Source: a virus
Lineage: Duplodnaviria; Caudoviricetes
Direction: 5' to 3' (one strand)
DNA length: 51,786 nucleotides
IMG/VR virus record: IMGVR_UViG_3300025104_000002
Coordinates: 1 to 51,786 of that record
The translations under genes and the position numbers were made by a program. Position 1 is the first letter of the stretch. Every line of letters starts with the position of its first letter. Positions 42,138 to 48,290 of this stretch are shown piece by piece. The notes beneath the pieces are model-generated. The model saw only the letters and a list, made by a program, of their open reading frames with translations. It was not told the DNA's origin and ran no database searches.

Positions 42138-42233
42138 CCCACCCTGTTGCAGTTCGGGGCTGCGCTGGAGTTCGGTGTGCCCCAGCGCGTGATCAGTCGG
42201 ATCGTCAGACGTGCATCCTACAAGGACATTTAA
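42124..42233 (+). pseudogene. Relic of an HNH endonuclease C-terminal HTH
   Basis: Start-less AALEFGVPQRVISRIVRRASYKDI* ending 1 nt before the polA ATG. Confidence 0.45.
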
Positions 42234-42234
42234 T

Positions 42235-45200
42235 ATGATGGACATCGTAACCATTGATTTTGAAACCTACTACGACAAGGACTATTCCCTGTCGAAGATG
42301 ACCACTGAATCCTACATCCGTGACCAGAGGTTCGAGATCATCGGTGTGGGCGTCAAGGTCAACAACTACCCCACCGACTGGTACAGCGGCGACAACCCCG
42401 GTAAGTTCCTCAAGTCGCTGAACTACAGCAATAAGGCCATCCTGTGTCACAACACAGCGTTCGATGGTGCCATCTTATCGTGGCACTTCGACATCCGTCC
42501 GAGACTGTGGTTGGACACCCTGAGCATGGCGCGTCCCTTTCACCAGTTGACGGTGGGCGGTAGCCTCAAGGCGTTGGCCCAATACTACGGGTTGGGCGTC
42601 AAGGGCGAGGAAGTGGTAGCTGCAATCGGCAAGCGGCGCAAGGATTTCACCCCCGAAGAACTTGCCCGGTACGGGCAGTATTGCATCAATGACGTGAACT
42701 TGACCAAGGCACTGTTCGACAAGCTCAAGGTGGGGTTCCCTGTCAGCGAACTGCTGGTCATCGACCAGACGCTGCGCATGTACACCGAGCCGGTGATCGA
42801 ACTGGATGTGCCACTCTTGGAGAAACATCTTGAGGAAGTCCGCACCCGCAAGCGCACCCTGATCTCTGACATCGGCCACGGCATGGGTGGTGAGCAGGCG
42901 GTGCAGGACATGCTGATGTCCAACGACAAGTTCGCCGAGTACCTCAAGCGGCTGGGTGTGGAGCCGCCCACCAAGATCAGCGCCAAGACGGGCAAGGAAT
43001 CGTGGGCCTTCGCCAAGACTGACAAGGGCATGACCGACTTGCTGGAACATCCTGATGAGCGTGTGCAGGCTGCGGTCGCTGCCCGACTGGGTGTGAAGTC
43101 CACCCTCGAAGAAACCCGCACCGAGAACCTGATCGCCGTAGCGAAGCGTGGGCGACTACCCATCATGCTCAACTACTACGGTGCCCACACGGGGCGCTTC
43201 AGTGGCGGCGACAAGCTCAACCTCCAGAACCTGCCGAGCCGTGGCAACACGACCATCCGCAGGGCGCTCAAGGCACCCGAGGGCCACGTGCTCATCTCGT
43301 GTGACTCCGCGCAGATCGAAGCACGTACTGTGGCATGGGTGGCAGGGCAGGACGATCTGGTGCAGGCGTTCCGTGACAAGCGGGATGTGTATTCCGAGTT
43401 CGCCTCCGAGGTCTACGGTCGCAAGATCACCAAGGCCGACAAGGTGGAGCGGTTCGTGGGTAAGACCTGTATTGCCGAGGGAACTCTTGTATTATCGCAT
43501 CACGGCTGGAAGCCTATTGAGTCGGTGACGACCGACGATTTGTTGTGGGATGGACAGGAGTGGGTATGCCATCAAGGATTACTGAACAACGGCATCAAGC
43601 CAACATTGAATCTGTGCGGCGCTTGGTTGACACCGGATCACCAAGTCTGGTCAGGGACGCAGTGGCTGGAAGCGCAATCAGTAGTAGCCGACGAAGATAC
43701 CCTCTACCGAGCATTGGACACCGGAGCGGAAAACTTACCGTCACAGGCTACATTGCTGGCACCCGAGGCGGGGTCAGTGCCCTTGTGGTCAGATGCGACT
43801 GCAACGAAGCCGAGTATCGAGTTGACCACCATAACTTCAAAAATTTCAGAAGCACTCGCTGCCCTCTGTGCGCCAAGAAAGCATCGGTTGCAAAACGCTA
43901 TTGGATGTACAGCGAAGCAATGGCGGATGATGACCACCGGACTCGCTTGCTCAATCGTCTCGCTTCGGCAATCACTCGCTGCCACTCTCCATCCAACAGA
44001 GCGTATCAGCACTATGGTGGGCGCGGCATACGGGTGTGCCCCGAGTGGCGCTTTGACCGAGCAGAGTTCCTGCGGTACGTCCAGACCCTCGACGGTTGGG
44101 ACAACCCGACTTTCGAGATGGATCGGATCGATGTGGACGGGCATTATGAACCGGGGAATATCCGCTTCGTATCGCGGAGCGATAACCTCCGCAACAAGCG
44201 CAAGATCGCAGACCTTGAAGCGCGTGTACGACATCTTGAACAGCGGCTCAAGGAACAGGTTCACGATCCTGACTGAAGCTGGCCCGCTCGTTGTCCACAA
44301 CTGCGTTCTGGGTCTGGGCTACGGCATGGGCGCAGAGAAGTTCCGACGCACTCTGGAGATCGGCCAAGGCGGCATCAACGTGGTGATCGACATCAACGAG
44401 GCAGAGCGGATCGTCCGCCTCTACCGACAGAAGAACTGGAAGATCGTACAGTTTTGGCAGAAGTGCGGCAACGCACTGAAGGACATGTTGTACGGTGGCA
44501 GCAATGCGCTGCACCCGCAGGTTCGCTACGACCCCAAGGGTATCCGCTTGCCAAACGGGTTCTACATCCAGTACCCGGCGCTGCGCGAGACGGCCAATGG
44601 GTTCATGTACATCTCGGATGCCCGCACCTACCAGAAGGCGCTCAAGGATCGAGTGCTCACTGGCGCACCGGCTGACGACATCGCATGGACTCGCGTCTAC
44701 GGCGGCAAGGTGACGGAAAACTGCATCGCCGCAGGGACGGAGGTGCTGACCAACCGAGGCTGGGTTCCTATAGAGAACGTGCAGTCGGCAGACATGGTGC
44801 ATGACGGAGTGGAGTTCGTTCGCCACGGTGGGACAGTGTTCAAATCTGTCCAAGACTGTATCACCATTGATGGCGTGTGGATGACCCCAGACCACGAGGT
44901 ACTGACAAATACCGGATGGCAAGCTGCATCACAGAACCCCGAACCTTACAGACCAAACCTTCGGCATGTTGACCGCTATCAACTGCGAGTGGACCACGCG
45001 CAGGACCAACACCACGAACAAGCGCAACACCGAGCGCAGAGTGGATGTACCGGCGCTCAGTGCGCAGACTGGGATACCCAGATCAACCCTGTACTACCGA
45101 CTCAAGCACGGCCTGTCTTTGACATCCTCAACGCAGGACCAAGACAACGGTTCGTAGTTCGTGGCGATAACGGTCCGTTCATTGTGCATAACTGTGTGCA

Positions 45201-45423
45201 AGCTCTTGCTGCATTGGTGATCCGTGAGCAGATGGTCGAGGCTGGCAAGCACTTCAAGGTGGCCTTCCAAGTCCACGACGAGATCATCATCTGCGTCCCC
45301 GAGAGCGCCGCGCTGGCAGCGCAAGCCAAGCTCGAAGAGATCATGTCCACCCCGCCCAAGTGGGCACCAGACCTGCCGGTTGCATGTGAATCCGGTGTGG
45401 CTGCGAACTATGGAGATACCTGA
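42235..45423 (+). CDS. polA: Family A DNA polymerase precursor with two inteins (about 627 aa spliced)
   Basis: Exonuclease DFET, HNTAFD and YCIND; HTGRFSG; motif A DSAQIEAR; motif B RFVGKT|CVLGLGYG; motif C QVHDE; AAGGA SD before ATG 42235. Confidence 0.93.
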   Translation: MMDIVTIDFETYYDKDYSLSKMTTESYIRDQRFEIIGVGVKVNNYPTDWYSGDNPGKFLKSLNYSNKAILCHNTAFDGAILSWHFDIRPRLWLDTLSMARPFHQLTVGGSLKALAQYYGLGVKGEEVVAAIGKRRKDFTPEELARYGQYCINDVNLTKALFDKLKVGFPVSELLVIDQTLRMYTEPVIELDVPLLEKHLEEVRTRKRTLISDIGHGMGGEQAVQDMLMSNDKFAEYLKRLGVEPPTKISAKTGKESWAFAKTDKGMTDLLEHPDERVQAAVAARLGVKSTLEETRTENLIAVAKRGRLPIMLNYYGAHTGRFSGGDKLNLQNLPSRGNTTIRRALKAPEGHVLISCDSAQIEARTVAWVAGQDDLVQAFRDKRDVYSEFASEVYGRKITKADKVERFVGKTCIAEGTLVLSHHGWKPIESVTTDDLLWDGQEWVCHQGLLNNGIKPTLNLCGAWLTPDHQVWSGTQWLEAQSVVADEDTLYRALDTGAENLPSQATLLAPEAGSVPLWSDATATKPSIELTTITSKISEALAALCAPRKHRLQNAIGCTAKQWRMMTTGLACSIVSLRQSLAATLHPTERISTMVGAAYGCAPSGALTEQSSCGTSRPSTVGTTRLSRWIGSMWTGIMNRGISASYRGAITSATSARSQTLKRVYDILNSGSRNRFTILTEAGPLVVHNCVLGLGYGMGAEKFRRTLEIGQGGINVVIDINEAERIVRLYRQKNWKIVQFWQKCGNALKDMLYGGSNALHPQVRYDPKGIRLPNGFYIQYPALRETANGFMYISDARTYQKALKDRVLTGAPADDIAWTRVYGGKVTENCIAAGTEVLTNRGWVPIENVQSADMVHDGVEFVRHGGTVFKSVQDCITIDGVWMTPDHEVLTNTGWQAASQNPEPYRPNLRHVDRYQLRVDHAQDQHHEQAQHRAQSGCTGAQCADWDTQINPVLPTQARPVFDILNAGPRQRFVVRGDNGPFIVHNCVQALAALVIREQMVEAGKHFKVAFQVHDEIIICVPESAALAAQAKLEEIMSTPPKWAPDLPVACESGVAANYGDT
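43468..44301 (+). mobile_element. polA intein 1 (278 aa) in motif B
   Basis: CIAEGTLVLSHHG, LTPDH, VYDILNSGSRNRF, VVHN then Cys+1; Ser/Thr-rich featureless middle in host frame. Confidence 0.93.
43566..44276 (+). CDS. HNH-type homing endonuclease overprinted in the +2 frame of polA intein 1 (236 aa)
   Basis: AGGAG 5 nt before ATG; GKLTV, RCDC, CPLC, RC.SP...YQHYGGRGIRVCPEW, MDRIDVDGHYEPGNIRF...NLRNKR. Confidence 0.88.
   Translation: MPSRITEQRHQANIESVRRLVDTGSPSLVRDAVAGSAISSSRRRYPLPSIGHRSGKLTVTGYIAGTRGGVSALVVRCDCNEAEYRVDHHNFKNFRSTRCPLCAKKASVAKRYWMYSEAMADDDHRTRLLNRLASAITRCHSPSNRAYQHYGGRGIRVCPEWRFDRAEFLRYVQTLDGWDNPTFEMDRIDVDGHYEPGNIRFVSRSDNLRNKRKIADLEARVRHLEQRLKEQVHDPD
44722..45192 (+). mobile_element. 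polA intein 2 (157-aa mini-intein)
   Basis: EN|CIAAGTEVLTNRG, MTPDH, VFDILNAGPRQRF, IVHN|CVQA. Confidence 0.92.
44906..45157 (+). pseudogene. Centrally deleted HNH endonuclease relic in the +1 frame of intein 2
   Basis: NLTDQTFGMLTAI joined directly to NCEWTTRRTNTTNKRN and HTH LSAQTGIPRSTLYYRLKHG. Confidence 0.7.
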
Positions 45424-45717: not shown

Positions 45718-46374
45718 GTGCGCCTGAGCCACTCCTACTCGTCGATCAAATTGTTCGAGAACTGCCCCCTGCGCTACTACCGCCAACGTATCACGAAGGA
45801 GGTGGACGATGAGGGCGGCGAAGCGTCAAAGTACGGTGAACGTATTCATGCGCTCCTTGAAAACCGACTGAAAGGGTCAGGGTTGCCGACCGAGGCAGCC
45901 CAGTACGAACCACTCTGTCAATCCGTGGAGAAGCTGGCGCGGCAGGGCGAACTGTACATCGAGAAGGAACTCGTACTCAACGACAACCTTACACCAACAG
46001 GTTGGTGGGATGCTGACGCATGGCTGCGCAGTAAACTTGACGTTCTTGTCATCGTCGGCAACGACGCTGTGGTCATGGACTGGAAGACGGGCAGGCGCAA
46101 CGCCGACCAGTTCCAGATGCAGATATTCGCGGCGCAGGTGTTCAAGCACTTCCCCGAGGTGCAGCGAGTCAAGACCTCACTCGTATGGCTCAAGACGATG
46201 GAGATGGACACGAACCAGTACAACCGCAGCAACGTGAACGCGGTCTGGGCCGAGATCATGAAGCGTATCCAGCGCATCCACGACGCCTACGAGCATGGCA
46301 ACTGGCCTGCCCGCCCGTCCGGGCTGTGCCGCTACTGCCCCTGCCGTCACGACTGTGACTATGCTAGGGTTTGA
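45718..46374 (+). CDS. PD-(D/E)XK exonuclease (RecB/Cas4-like)
   Basis: SYSSIKLFENCP, GERIH, KLDVL...MDWKTG, Q...F and C-terminal CRYCP...C. Confidence 0.85.
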   Translation: MRLSHSYSSIKLFENCPLRYYRQRITKEVDDEGGEASKYGERIHALLENRLKGSGLPTEAAQYEPLCQSVEKLARQGELYIEKELVLNDNLTPTGWWDADAWLRSKLDVLVIVGNDAVVMDWKTGRRNADQFQMQIFAAQVFKHFPEVQRVKTSLVWLKTMEMDTNQYNRSNVNAVWAEIMKRIQRIHDAYEHGNWPARPSGLCRYCPCRHDCDYARV

Positions 46375-46417
46375 CCTTACAAAAATACTTGACAGCAACG
46401 TAAAGAGGAGTGCTATA

Positions 46418-46723
46418 ATGAGCGCACTGACACCGGAAGGCAAGACCAAACGGATGGTGACGGAGGTTCTGAAGAAGTACAAGCTCTGGTACTTCTTCCC
46501 CGCAGCGAATGGCATGGGTCGCGCCGGAATCCCCGACATCATCACCATCGTGGACGGTGGCTTTGTGGGTATCGAGGTCAAGGCAGACAAGACCAAGAAG
46601 CCCACCGAGTTGCAAGTCCGCTGTGGCAAGGAGATTCAAGCGGCTGGTGGGCGTTGGTTCCTCGTGTTCGACGAGGGATCATGCGCTGAACTGGAACGAT
46701 ACATACAAGACAAGGTGATGTGA
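46418..46723 (+). CDS. VRR-NUC nuclease (possible resolvase)
   Basis: TPEG, GIPDII, FVGIEVKA, PTELQ, IQAAGG; GAGGAG SD. Confidence 0.85.
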   Translation: MSALTPEGKTKRMVTEVLKKYKLWYFFPAANGMGRAGIPDIITIVDGGFVGIEVKADKTKKPTELQVRCGKEIQAAGGRWFLVFDEGSCAELERYIQDKVM

Positions 46724-46724
46724 C

Positions 46725-48290
46725 ATGTTGGTAGTGGAGAAGGCCAAAGCCCTCGCACTGAAGCTGAACAACCCGAACCGGGTGCTGGACTCCATCCCCA
46801 CGGCCAAGTCACTGGAGGTACGGGGCACCCAGATCGTGGTGACACCACATCGACTAGATGAGGTCAAGGTGCTTCGCAACCTCGGCATCAAGGCACCATC
46901 GCCCATCCTCCACTACTACGACTGGCCGGGGCAGCACACCCCGTTCGACCACCAGCGCGAGACTGCGGCGTTCCTGACGCTGAACCATCGCTGTCTGGTG
47001 CTCAACGAAATCGGTACAGGCAAAACCCAGTCCGCGCTGTGGGCTGCGGACTACCTGATCAAGACCAAGAAGGTCAAGAAGGTGTTGATCCTGTCACCGC
47101 TCAGTACGTTGGAGCGTGTGTGGGGCGACGGCATCTTCACCGGGCTGGTCCATCGCCGCTTCGTGGTGCTGCATGGCACCGCTGAGAAACGCCTGAAGCT
47201 GCTGCGCACCGAGGCTGACTTCTACATCATCAACCACGACGGGTTCCCAATCATCAAGGACGAGTGTCACGGTATGTTTGATCTGGTCATCGTGGACGAA
47301 GCGGCAGTGCTGCGCAACCCATCGACCCAGCGGTTCAAGATTTTCCGCAAGTGGATCGACAACAACCCGCATGTACGGCTGTGGCTGATGACTGGGACGC
47401 CCACTCCCAACGCCCCCACGGATGCGTGGGCACTGGCGAAGCTGGTGGGTTCGCCCCACCTCACCAAGACGTTCACGGCTTTCCGTGAGCAGGTAATGAG
47501 GAAGATCGGCCAGTGGAAGTTCGTGCCACGCCCCGAGGCAGTGGACATCGTGAAGCACATCCTGCAACCTGCTGTGCGATTCACACGCGACGAGTGCTTT
47601 GACTTGCCTGAGACGATCATCCAGACCCGGCAGGTGGAACTCACTGCGGAGCAGAAGAAGCACTACACGCAGATGCTGCGTCACTTCGTGACCGAGGTGA
47701 GCCAAGACACGGCTCGTGGTGGAACCATCACTGCGGTCAACGAGGCTGTGAAGATTCAGAAACTGGTGCAGGTCGCCTGCGGCGTGGCGTATGGCGACGA
47801 CGGTCAGAACATCGAGATCGACTGCTCACCACGGATCAACTTAGTGAAGGAGGTTATCGAGGAAGCAGGTGAGAAGGTGATTCTGTTCGTACCACTGACA
47901 GGCACACTGCACTTGCTGGAGAAAGAACTGAGCAAACACTGGAGTGTTGGAGTCGTCAACGGCGAGGTGTCCAGTACACAACGCAACAAGGTATTCCACG
48001 ACTTCCAATATGGCACTGACCCCCACGTTTTGATTGCCCACCCCGGCACGATGGCACACGGTCTGACACTGACCACCGCCTCGACGATTATCTGGTACGG
48101 GCCGATCAACAGCAACGAGGTCTACGTGCAAGCGAACGGTCGCATTGAACGGATTGGCAAGAAGCGCGTGTCCAACGTGATCCACATCGAGGCCACGGAC
48201 TTGGAGCACAAGATGTACGAGCGACTGAAGAACAAGCAGAAGCTGCAAGGCTTGCTGCTCGACCTGATCAAAGAGCAAACACAGAGGTGA
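46725..48290 (+). CDS. SNF2-like SF2 helicase
   Basis: PFDHQ, EIGTGKT, VIVDEA, MTGTP, HGLTLT and QANGRIERIG motifs. Confidence 0.9.
   Translation: MLVVEKAKALALKLNNPNRVLDSIPTAKSLEVRGTQIVVTPHRLDEVKVLRNLGIKAPSPILHYYDWPGQHTPFDHQRETAAFLTLNHRCLVLNEIGTGKTQSALWAADYLIKTKKVKKVLILSPLSTLERVWGDGIFTGLVHRRFVVLHGTAEKRLKLLRTEADFYIINHDGFPIIKDECHGMFDLVIVDEAAVLRNPSTQRFKIFRKWIDNNPHVRLWLMTGTPTPNAPTDAWALAKLVGSPHLTKTFTAFREQVMRKIGQWKFVPRPEAVDIVKHILQPAVRFTRDECFDLPETIIQTRQVELTAEQKKHYTQMLRHFVTEVSQDTARGGTITAVNEAVKIQKLVQVACGVAYGDDGQNIEIDCSPRINLVKEVIEEAGEKVILFVPLTGTLHLLEKELSKHWSVGVVNGEVSSTQRNKVFHDFQYGTDPHVLIAHPGTMAHGLTLTTASTIIWYGPINSNEVYVQANGRIERIGKKRVSNVIHIEATDLEHKMYERLKNKQKLQGLLLDLIKEQTQR

Follow-up and report, generated by a model that had tools for sequence, protein, structure and literature searches.

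Overlapping genes within inteins were first described in 2025-2026 and were called rare. Actinobacteriophage inteins carry an Endo VII-like endonuclease in reading frame 3, and the same DNA read in the host frame yields no recognisable structure; an origin by invasion of a free-standing endonuclease gene was proposed, with the remark that such genes escape annotation pipelines (Gosselin, Arsenault, Gogarten, bioRxiv 10.1101/2025.01.02.630785). Similarly, a cyanobacterial dnaX intein holds a LAGLIDADG endonuclease in a +2 open reading frame (ORF) over which the host frame reads as disordered, and its full alleles coexist with mini and intein-free ones (Phillips, DeSimone, Gogarten, bioRxiv 10.64898/2026.09.14.751524). 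The methylase gene of phage ShiLan hides an HNH-labelled, actively homing endonuclease in its third frame while remaining open in its own; the passages on its translation treat that question as open, finding no ribosome-binding site and proposing leaderless initiation at GTG (PMC11855218). In 'fractured genes', finally, a free-standing endonuclease gene is described as separating the two halves of a split intein (Dassa et al. 2009, PMC2677866). Here we describe an intein in the gene for a family A DNA polymerase (polA) of a virus of the Caudoviricetes, known from IMG/VR record IMGVR_UViG_3300025104_000002. The window, that is, the whole stretch of DNA analysed, is this record at its length of 51,786 nucleotides (nt), with an estimated completeness of 94%.

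The polA gene of the window encodes a precursor of 1070 amino acids (aa) and holds two inteins, intein 1 (278 aa) and intein 2 (157 aa), the removal of which leaves 635 aa. Within intein 1 we found a second ORF, offset by 2 relative to polA. Judging from its conservation across many loci, intein 1 probably carries an overlapping, separately initiated homing-endonuclease gene, and the intein-frame reading of the same DNA is probably an unconstrained linker. The features on which this reading rests are the following.

42211 to 45423, plus strand: polA ORF, from the ORF listing and Pfam matches to DNA_pol_A (E 2.6e-29) and DNA_pol_A_exo1 (E 8.9e-6).
43468 to 44301, plus strand: intein 1, 278 aa from Cys1 to His-Asn, placed by its boundaries, its invariant residues and relatives with an empty site.
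43468 to 43665, plus strand: N-terminal splicing region of intein 1, selected in the polymerase frame; it holds the conserved LWDGxEW codons.
43556 to 43560, plus strand: Shine-Dalgarno-like AGGAG, 5 nt ahead of ATG 43566, from sequence and duplex energy.
43566 to 44276, plus strand: nested ORF in the +2 (= -1) frame of polA, 236 codons (43566-44273) followed by TGA (44274-44276).
43690 to 44224, plus strand: region selected in the nested frame, in which polymerase codon position 2 is most variable (0.58-0.71), identity is 52% against 27%, and stops are absent.
43716 to 43874, plus strand: predicted CxC...CxxC zinc ribbon, a CapR-like DNA-binding domain (residues 51-103 of the nested protein), from Pfam PF21817 and cysteine conservation.
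43911 to 44213, plus strand: C-terminal module of about 100 aa (RC..P...Y..YGGRGI.V...W ... DR.D..G.YEPGN.RF...N..N.R), from alignment; putative nuclease or DNA-recognition core.
44225 to 44301, plus strand: C-terminal splicing region of intein 1, VYDILNSGSRNRFTILTEAGPLVVHN, where the variability maximum is back at polymerase position 3 and D255, R264 and N278 are invariant.

Out-of-frame intein endonucleases had thus already been reported in 2025-2026 with other endonuclease families, and the polA case differs in family. As in the actinobacteriophage inteins, splicing domain and homing endonuclease lie in different frames of the same strand; unlike those inteins, with their Endo VII-like enzymes, this one combines a zinc ribbon with the YGGRGI/DR-D module. 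The hosts in that account are actinophages, whereas ours are phages of Salmonella, Pseudomonas, Vibrio and E. coli together with viruses of wastewater viromes, and we give here an analysis of start codons and Shine-Dalgarno motifs, of which the passages on the actinobacteriophage inteins hold none. The dnaX intein is alike in having a +2 endonuclease ORF between the splicing regions, Shine-Dalgarno-like motifs upstream and frame-dependent selection. It is cellular and of the LAGLIDADG kind, whereas the element described here has a phage polA as host, belongs to a different, uncharacterised protein family and starts inside the N-terminal splicing region. With the ShiLan element, the polA case shares an endonuclease frame hidden within a host gene that is open in its own frame; that element lacks the splicing domains of an intein and is retained in the mature methylase, whereas here there is a bona fide intein and a Shine-Dalgarno-like motif. 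The likeness to the fractured genes is a free-standing type of endonuclease gene lodged in the intein of a replication gene. Their host is divided between two ORFs and trans-spliced; here the host frame is continuous in 74/74 inteins. A literature search, with the preprint supplements outside its scope, returned no description of the polA nested-gene case, and seven annotated GenBank records that we inspected carry the polymerase coding sequence (CDS) only, the nested gene being unannotated; the annotation of Salmonella phage vB_SenS-Ent1 mentions an intein 'encoding splicing domains' only. An earlier reading of this DNA, made from the sequence alone, had arrived at the same architecture for polA, unaware that the kind had been reported in 2025-2026 for other inteins.

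Intein 1 is inserted in polymerase motif B (FVGKT/C..HN/CVLGLGYGMG, slashes marking its ends) and runs from Cys420 of the precursor (43468) to Asn697 (44301), with the +1 Cys at 44302-44304. These limits are the one correction that we make to the sequence-only reading. C1, T55, H58, D255 and N278 are invariant in 50 relatives, R264 likewise, and H277 is kept in at least 90% of them. The sequence hallmarks of a class 1 intein are present: an N-terminal Cys, the TxxH of block B, a C-terminal His-Asn and a +1 Cys, which is also retained in the empty polA allele. A Pfam search of intein 1 gave no Hint or intein match, and Hint_2 matches intein 2 only weakly (E 0.033); the PHROG profile phrog_93 does match the polymerase-frame intein (E 3.6e-15). 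A megablast search of polA against GenBank phages returned no match. Given the essential host gene and the stop-free polymerase frame of 74/74 inteins, we infer that intein 1 is a cis-splicing intein.

The letters of the nested ORF are as the sequence-only reading had described them. In GGACAGGAGTGGGTATGC (43552-43569), AGGAG at 43556-43560 is followed by TGGGT and then by the ATG at 43566-43568, so that the AGGAG lies 5 nt 5' of an ATG that opens 236 codons in the +2 frame; the ORF listing takes this frame further up, to GTG 43545, for a total of 243 aa. The motifs RCDC, CPLC, YGGRGIRVCPEW and DRIDVDGHYEPGN were all found in the nested ORF. The polymerase frame over the same DNA, which had been called Ser/Thr/Ala-rich and featureless, indeed has no Pfam match; across relatives it contains 13% Thr, 11% Ser and 9% Ala and is only 27% identical. 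The observation is therefore confirmed as real, and the comparisons that follow identify it as strongly non-random.

A tblastn search with the nested protein matched 989 records of GenBank phages, and a polymerase-named feature lies under the match in 25 of the best 30 rows. In Salmonella phage vB_SenS-Ent1, Pseudomonas phage MR14 and EBPR siphovirus 2, the nested match has the offset of 2 from the annotated polymerase CDS that is seen in the window, and a Vibrio phage record without annotation contains the same two ORFs. We scanned IMG/VR and obtained 80 loci, which with the window and four GenBank loci made 85 sequences. The polymerase frame is open over the entire match in 78 of the 85; two are cut at a contig end, and the remaining five, distant homologues that stand free, are closed in both other frames. 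None of the 74 inteins with both ends on the contig contains a polymerase-frame stop, and in 73 of these 74 the nested frame is uninterrupted for at least 196 codons. The exception, L021, has a premature stop at nested codon 193 with the polymerase frame still open, and may represent a decaying endonuclease gene. In another contig, the older record L061, the polymerase frame is closed upstream of position 2972, ahead of the nested gene, which may reflect a frameshift or a sequencing error.

To this we added a stop-avoidance test, in which the nested gene of 58 non-redundant loci was shuffled among synonymous codons. Stops in the polymerase frame of the nested-gene region were absent from 58/58 loci, against a mean of 3.86 in the shuffles; on average 2% of shuffles were stop-free, and for the window 0/300 were. 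The third frame exhibited no such avoidance (14.9 stops observed, 14.2 simulated). Free-standing members of the family, which have their own ORFs, are closed in the other two frames, with 8-10 stops in four IMG/VR homologues. The overlap also constrains the nested protein. A Met followed by Ile, Met, Thr, Asn or Lys would create a host-frame TGA, and this combination occurs at 0/123 positions in nested proteins compared with 245/879 in representatives of the family. From these results, we conclude that the arrangement of two overlapping frames is not chance.

The two frames differ in where they are conserved. When codon-position diversity was computed over the 58 non-redundant loci, the most variable position from intein nt 1 to about 200 was polymerase codon position 3 (0.51-0.68). 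From about nt 220 to 760 it was polymerase position 2, which is nested position 3 (0.50-0.71), and beyond about nt 765 polymerase position 3 was again the most variable. Similarly, mean pairwise aa identity in the central part is 52% for the nested frame and 27% for the polymerase frame. This switch in diversity, together with the contrast in identity, indicates that the splicing regions are maintained for the intein and the middle for the nested protein, and supports, at the sequence level, the view of the polymerase-frame reading of the middle as an unconstrained, stop-free linker, the 'junk loop' of the sequence-only reading. In this locus, nature provides a clear-cut case of a single piece of DNA on which selection alternates between two frames.

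We then considered how the nested frame might be translated. Its start region sits within a conserved intein motif, LWDGxEW(V/I)C. Of the 29 non-redundant loci in the clade of the window, 28 have ATG at the codon equivalent to 43566 and one has GTG. In the other 29 loci, a start codon lies two codons further upstream (ATG in 20, GTG in 5, TTG in 2), made up of the last base of one codon and the TG of the conserved Trp. Duplex energies of the Shine-Dalgarno-like motifs, computed with an anti-Shine-Dalgarno motif, are -7.0 kcal/mol for the window, -8.9 on average for its clade and -7.1 on average for the other loci, against a background with a median of -2.4 and a 5% quantile of -6.6; all loci with these conserved starts have a duplex of -4 kcal/mol or below, compared with 23% of background positions. 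The consensus RNA around the start is unstructured (3 pairs without covariation; folding z = -0.58). Among public gene calls, those made on short contigs include products of exactly 236 aa, and a scan of 43300-44400 for sigma-70 promoters found 0 sites. Internal initiation is the best-supported mechanism, and initiation at 43566 itself is something we infer. Within polA, just upstream of the nested start, there is a terminator-like hairpin followed by a T-rich run (43521-43536), which is not conserved in relatives; finding one such site against 0.6 expected is close to the chance level.

Several observations weigh against this assignment of the start, or limit what can be drawn from it. The first approximately 40 nested codons evolve under the polymerase frame only, and having no constraint of their own, they cannot be used to fix the start through protein conservation. 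The ATG and the Shine-Dalgarno-like motif are built from conserved intein residues (WDG, EW, VC), and splicing may be what conserves them. Nor is the conserved synonymous A of Val32 (27/28) unique, as Val7 is GTA in 28/28 and other four-fold sites are conserved too. Finally, the nested gene needs a start further downstream in four non-redundant loci (five contigs: L049, L076, L078/L079). It is conceivable, though we regard it as unlikely, that nested translation begins at another in-frame codon, namely GTG 43545, GTG 43560 or GTG 43662, the last of which stands just ahead of the conserved domain. All three are open in the window, and GTG 43560 and GTG 43662 have duplex energies of -6.4 and -4.8, respectively. 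As for 43662, its equivalent is a start codon in 27/29 members of the clade, nested-frame constraint is absent upstream of it, and in L078/L079 a start is possible only near this position. However, the equivalent codon is a start codon in only 18/29 of the other loci and not in the Salmonella phages. At GTG 43560, the AGGAG directly abuts the codon with no spacer, and the equivalent of 43545 lacks a Shine-Dalgarno motif (mean -0.7); in 10/58 loci, moreover, a stop further down separates it from the nested gene. A quite different route, programmed -1 ribosomal frameshifting that yields a fusion of N-extein, N-intein and endonuclease, is very improbable. The +2 frame is indeed the -1 frame, and it is open from 43521, upstream of the domain, but an X_XXY_YYZ heptamer is lacking in the window and found in just 5/58 loci, at differing positions; downstream RNA structure is not conserved, and in a second intein lineage (described below) a gene of this family lies in the +1 frame, out of reach of -1 slippage. 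With neither a conserved slippery heptamer nor a conserved structure, we rejected frameshifting.

Internal initiation at ATG 43566 leads to the following proposed sequence of events. Ribosomes would start internally on the polA mRNA, using the AGGAG supplied by the intein's own codons, and would produce a free protein of 236 aa with a zinc-ribbon DNA-binding domain and the YGGRGI/DR-D module. This protein may cut or nick polA alleles that lack the intein and thereby cause homing. Ribosomes in the polymerase frame, by contrast, would read the same DNA as a Thr/Ser/Ala-rich linker of about 180 residues that need only be free of stops and leave splicing unhindered. If splicing occurs around some 180 unconstrained residues, as predicted, this tolerance could be useful for intein engineering.

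The distribution of intein 1 is that of a mobile element. Among the 80 IMG/VR polymerases closest to that of the window (73-92% identity over 219 N-extein residues), 78 have an empty site, which reads FVGKT-C[IV]LGLGYGMG, one is cut, and one has the intein with its nested gene; the absence of the intein from 78 of the 79 uncut relatives is as expected for a mobile element. Intein and nested gene are also more similar to the window than the exteins are. In L006, identity to the window is 88% and 86% in the splicing regions and 82% in the nested protein, but 56% and 30% in the exteins. Three features of a homing gene were seen: it is nested in an element predicted to be self-splicing, it is sporadic in close relatives, and it is under purifying selection. 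Together, comparison across loci demonstrates that both frames are kept open and that the element is sporadic among close relatives, with selection that alternates by region. Among the inteins with both ends on a contig, the same unit of intein and nested gene is inserted in motif B at either of two points separated by four codons, GK[TVA]/C in 37/74 and GKxxxLx/C.../[CS]G[YF] in 35/74, and at two further sites, one in L049 and one in L074, the latter being the site of intein 2; switching of insertion site is seen among close relatives.

Public sequencing runs contain the same DNA. Near-identical sequence (0.73-0.79 of sampled words) is present in 13 further DNA runs from 5 wastewater, sludge or bioreactor studies, and contigs compared there have no indel between 43468 and 44301. 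It is also present in 3 metatranscriptome runs of 2 studies, where contigs from the RNA libraries cover parts of the region; neither their presence nor their coverage amounts to proof or demonstration of transcription. In one DNA run, a contig across the extein-intein junction coexists with another that lacks exactly 834 nt, which equals intein 1 in length, and the same joint occurs in one RNA-library run. As the joint stands in DNA, it is not a product of RNA splicing; it is a weak hint of coexisting alleles, weak because the flanks are only 24-30 nt long. These data bear on the possibility that the nested ORF is a dead relic, or that an assembly frameshift has disguised an ordinary intein with an in-frame endonuclease. 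Such genes do decay, as intein 2 illustrates, and L021 has a premature stop in its nested frame, but we consider either version highly improbable: the nested frame is under purifying selection, and the same offset recurs in 78 independent sequences, down to 35% identity. That recurrence, together with the near-identical sequence in independent runs, refutes the assembly artefact.

The nested protein consists of three parts: the zinc ribbon, the C-terminal module and a short tail that overlaps the C-terminal splicing region, whose DNA covers the final approximately 17 codons of the nested ORF. PF21817 scores the window protein at E 0.0066 and 17 bits, below its cut-off of 24.2, but it matches 17/50 relatives (best E 2.6e-6), and C77, C99 and C102 are invariant in the 50 relatives, with C79 kept in at least 90%. 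A CapR DNA-binding domain of phage homing endonucleases is described in PMC10448857. PHROG profiles labelled HNH endonuclease match the nested protein strongly (phrog_374, E 2.3e-35; phrog_3377, E 9.6e-22; phrog_2081, E 2e-20), and here the label is an annotation, not an assay.

Membership in the HNH group is not established. No Pfam HNH family was found at E<=1 in the 50 relatives, window included, or at E<=0.1 in seven free-standing homologues; in two of the phage genomes concerned, PF13392 picks up other genes, which are canonical HNH_3 members, and passes over this one. An NCBIfam search of the nested protein gave no match, and a PDB sequence search with the family profile gave nothing below E 0.4, with only zinc-ribbon look-alikes. 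In I-HmuI-type enzymes, a D-H pair on the first strand of the beta-beta-alpha-metal motif provides the catalytic His of HNH nucleases. We take the pattern D-R-x-D...Y-x-P-x-N-x-R...N-x-x-N-x-R to resemble the strand-strand-helix metal finger of the HNH_3 enzymes. At the position of the catalytic His, the nested protein has Arg: D186-R187 is invariant in 50/50 relatives, and among 292 module copies from the 149 best representatives, Arg occurs in 287 and His in 0, with N83 kept in 291 and N95 in 257. Alignment with three canonical HNH_3 proteins by hhalign covered only 19 columns, the strand-helix part, with a probability of 3.5%, which is too weak to count. It is this combination, no match to an HNH model, Arg in place of His and an alignment of 19 columns, on which we base the verdict.

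An alternative is a protein that is made as proposed but is not a nuclease, such as a sequence-specific DNA-binding regulator or a targeting partner for another nuclease, with 'HNH' a habit of annotation. We think this doubtful, although much about the module weighs on its side and against an endonuclease. The module has no Pfam, NCBIfam or PDB sequence match, no nuclease model matches the nested protein or its homologues, and the catalytic His is replaced by Arg, with no His in any copy. Moreover, 125/149 of the top representatives have 2-4 tandem copies of the module, a habit also typical of DNA-binding modules, and a Pfam scan of 10 multi-copy proteins found a nuclease domain in 0/10. The tandem copies are interspersed with segments that resemble a helix-turn-helix. 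On the other hand, the conservation of D, N and N in the motif, compared with HNH_3, is like that of the metal ligands of His-Me fingers; the family occupies the places of homing endonucleases, inside inteins and between pieces of a polymerase gene; the element is sporadic among close polymerase relatives; and the nested frame is still under purifying selection in mobile lineages. The endonuclease reading rests on these locations, together with the signature of mobility. Free-standing homologues lie beside or between pieces of polymerase genes and bear a CapR-like DNA-binding domain of the homing-endonuclease type. Two free-standing members annotated 'HNH endonuclease' share the domain order and invariant residues of the nested protein (G..G.LTV, zinc ribbon, RC.NP, YGGRGI, DR.D..G.Y.P.N.R): one lies between pieces of the DNA polymerase I gene of Escherichia phage PGN829.1 and the other is in Burkholderia phage BcepMigl, so that one of the two is associated with polA. 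In PGN829.1 (L170), the gene at 715-1371 stands between two CDSs annotated as DNA polymerase I, and polA of this phage is either split or interrupted by an intron, with the endonuclease gene in the gap.

Our results indicate that the sequence-only reading was largely right in its interpretation. The derivation of the Shine-Dalgarno motif and ATG from intein codons, the stand-alone +2-frame protein and the tolerated, unconstrained loop all have comparative evidence behind them; the two parts on less firm ground are initiation at 43566 and the 'HNH nuclease' label, which derives from PHROG annotation. The core of that reading holds because the start and the Shine-Dalgarno-like motif are conserved, because selection switches frames, and because the host frame is stop-free but poorly conserved. 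The extent of the phenomenon is considerable, comprising at least 74 IMG/VR contigs and many Salmonella phages in GenBank, the lineage with the +1 frame being additional; such overlapping genes are thus widespread in phages of Gram-negative hosts. The family of the YGGRGI/DR-D module numbers 112,398 representative clusters at E<=1e-3, and the analysis flags this very large group of 'HNH'-labelled proteins as one whose chemistry is not established. We tentatively propose, as a possibility short of an even chance, that the RC-NP/YGGRGI/D-R-x-D/Y-x-P-x-N-x-R/N-x-R module is the working core of phage homing endonucleases that form a very large and uncharacterised class, related to the His-Me finger but without the catalytic His. 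On this proposal, polA inteins would have captured free-standing genes of the class on two occasions or more, one capture giving the +2 frame at motif B and another the +1 frame at the GGK..EN..QA site, and the conserved LWDG-x-EW codons would double as ribosome-binding site and start, locking intein and endonuclease together. If so, a class of at least 112,000 clusters has neither a Pfam model nor a solved structure that sequence searches can find.

The second intein of the window belongs to the same family and occupies the second (GGK..EN..QA) site. It comprises two features.

44722 to 45192, plus strand: intein 2, a mini-intein of 157 aa that shares its family with intein 1, whose splicing regions it matches at 43% and 50% identity.
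44906 to 45154, plus strand: apparent remnant of a nested gene within intein 2, an 83-codon stop-to-stop frame, +1 relative to polA.

We found that the polymerases of Caulobacter phage GB2A and the aphid-symbiont phage APSE-3 have an intein at this second site, GGKx/C...HN/CENxxQA, which carries a gene of the same family, of 213-216 aa, in the +1 frame; the protein is 31% identical to that of the window (E 2e-20). We examined 82 loci with the +1-frame protein: in 21 (19 IMG/VR contigs, GB2A and APSE-3) a long polymerase ORF contains it in its +1 frame, and 61 are free-standing. The gene of this lineage carries a C-terminal helix-turn-helix, as in L174 (2240-2881) and L175 (2243-2893). The remnant in intein 2 matches phrog_3377 (E 2.3e-5) and phrog_374 (E 0.0022). 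By BLASTP, it is similar to residues 148-209 of the GB2A nested protein (E 1e-5) and, more weakly, to residues 1-80 (E 0.019), where the similar stretch is the first approximately 20; similarity to both ends of the GB2A protein fits an internal deletion. A tblastn search of the remnant against phages gave a single match, which covers only the first 25 residues, lies over conserved intein DNA and is uninformative. With an intact gene in intein 1 and a remnant in intein 2, one polA thus displays both an intact and a decayed nested endonuclease gene. The case supports the view that free-standing endonuclease genes invade mini-inteins, and intein 2 captures a stage of decay. In two runs, contigs part from the window at 44721 and continue with what resembles the extein that follows intein 2, which suggests that alleles without intein 2 exist.

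Two minor observations concern DNA on either side of the nested ORF. At the start of intein 1 (43468-43490), and thus upstream of the nested ORF, several four-fold sites are nearly invariant in the window's clade (Val7 GTA in 28/28, Ala3 GCC in 19/20, Gly5 GGA in 25/29); these could reflect a recombination tract, an RNA signal or recent spread. Downstream of polA lie three ORFs (45718-48290). The first, at 45718-46374, ends in a four-Cys motif, CRYCPCRHDC, and is presumably Cas4/PD-(D/E)XK-like; a small ORF at 46295-46723 and a helicase-like ORF of 521 aa at 46725-48290 follow, and the three look like the replication module of this phage group.

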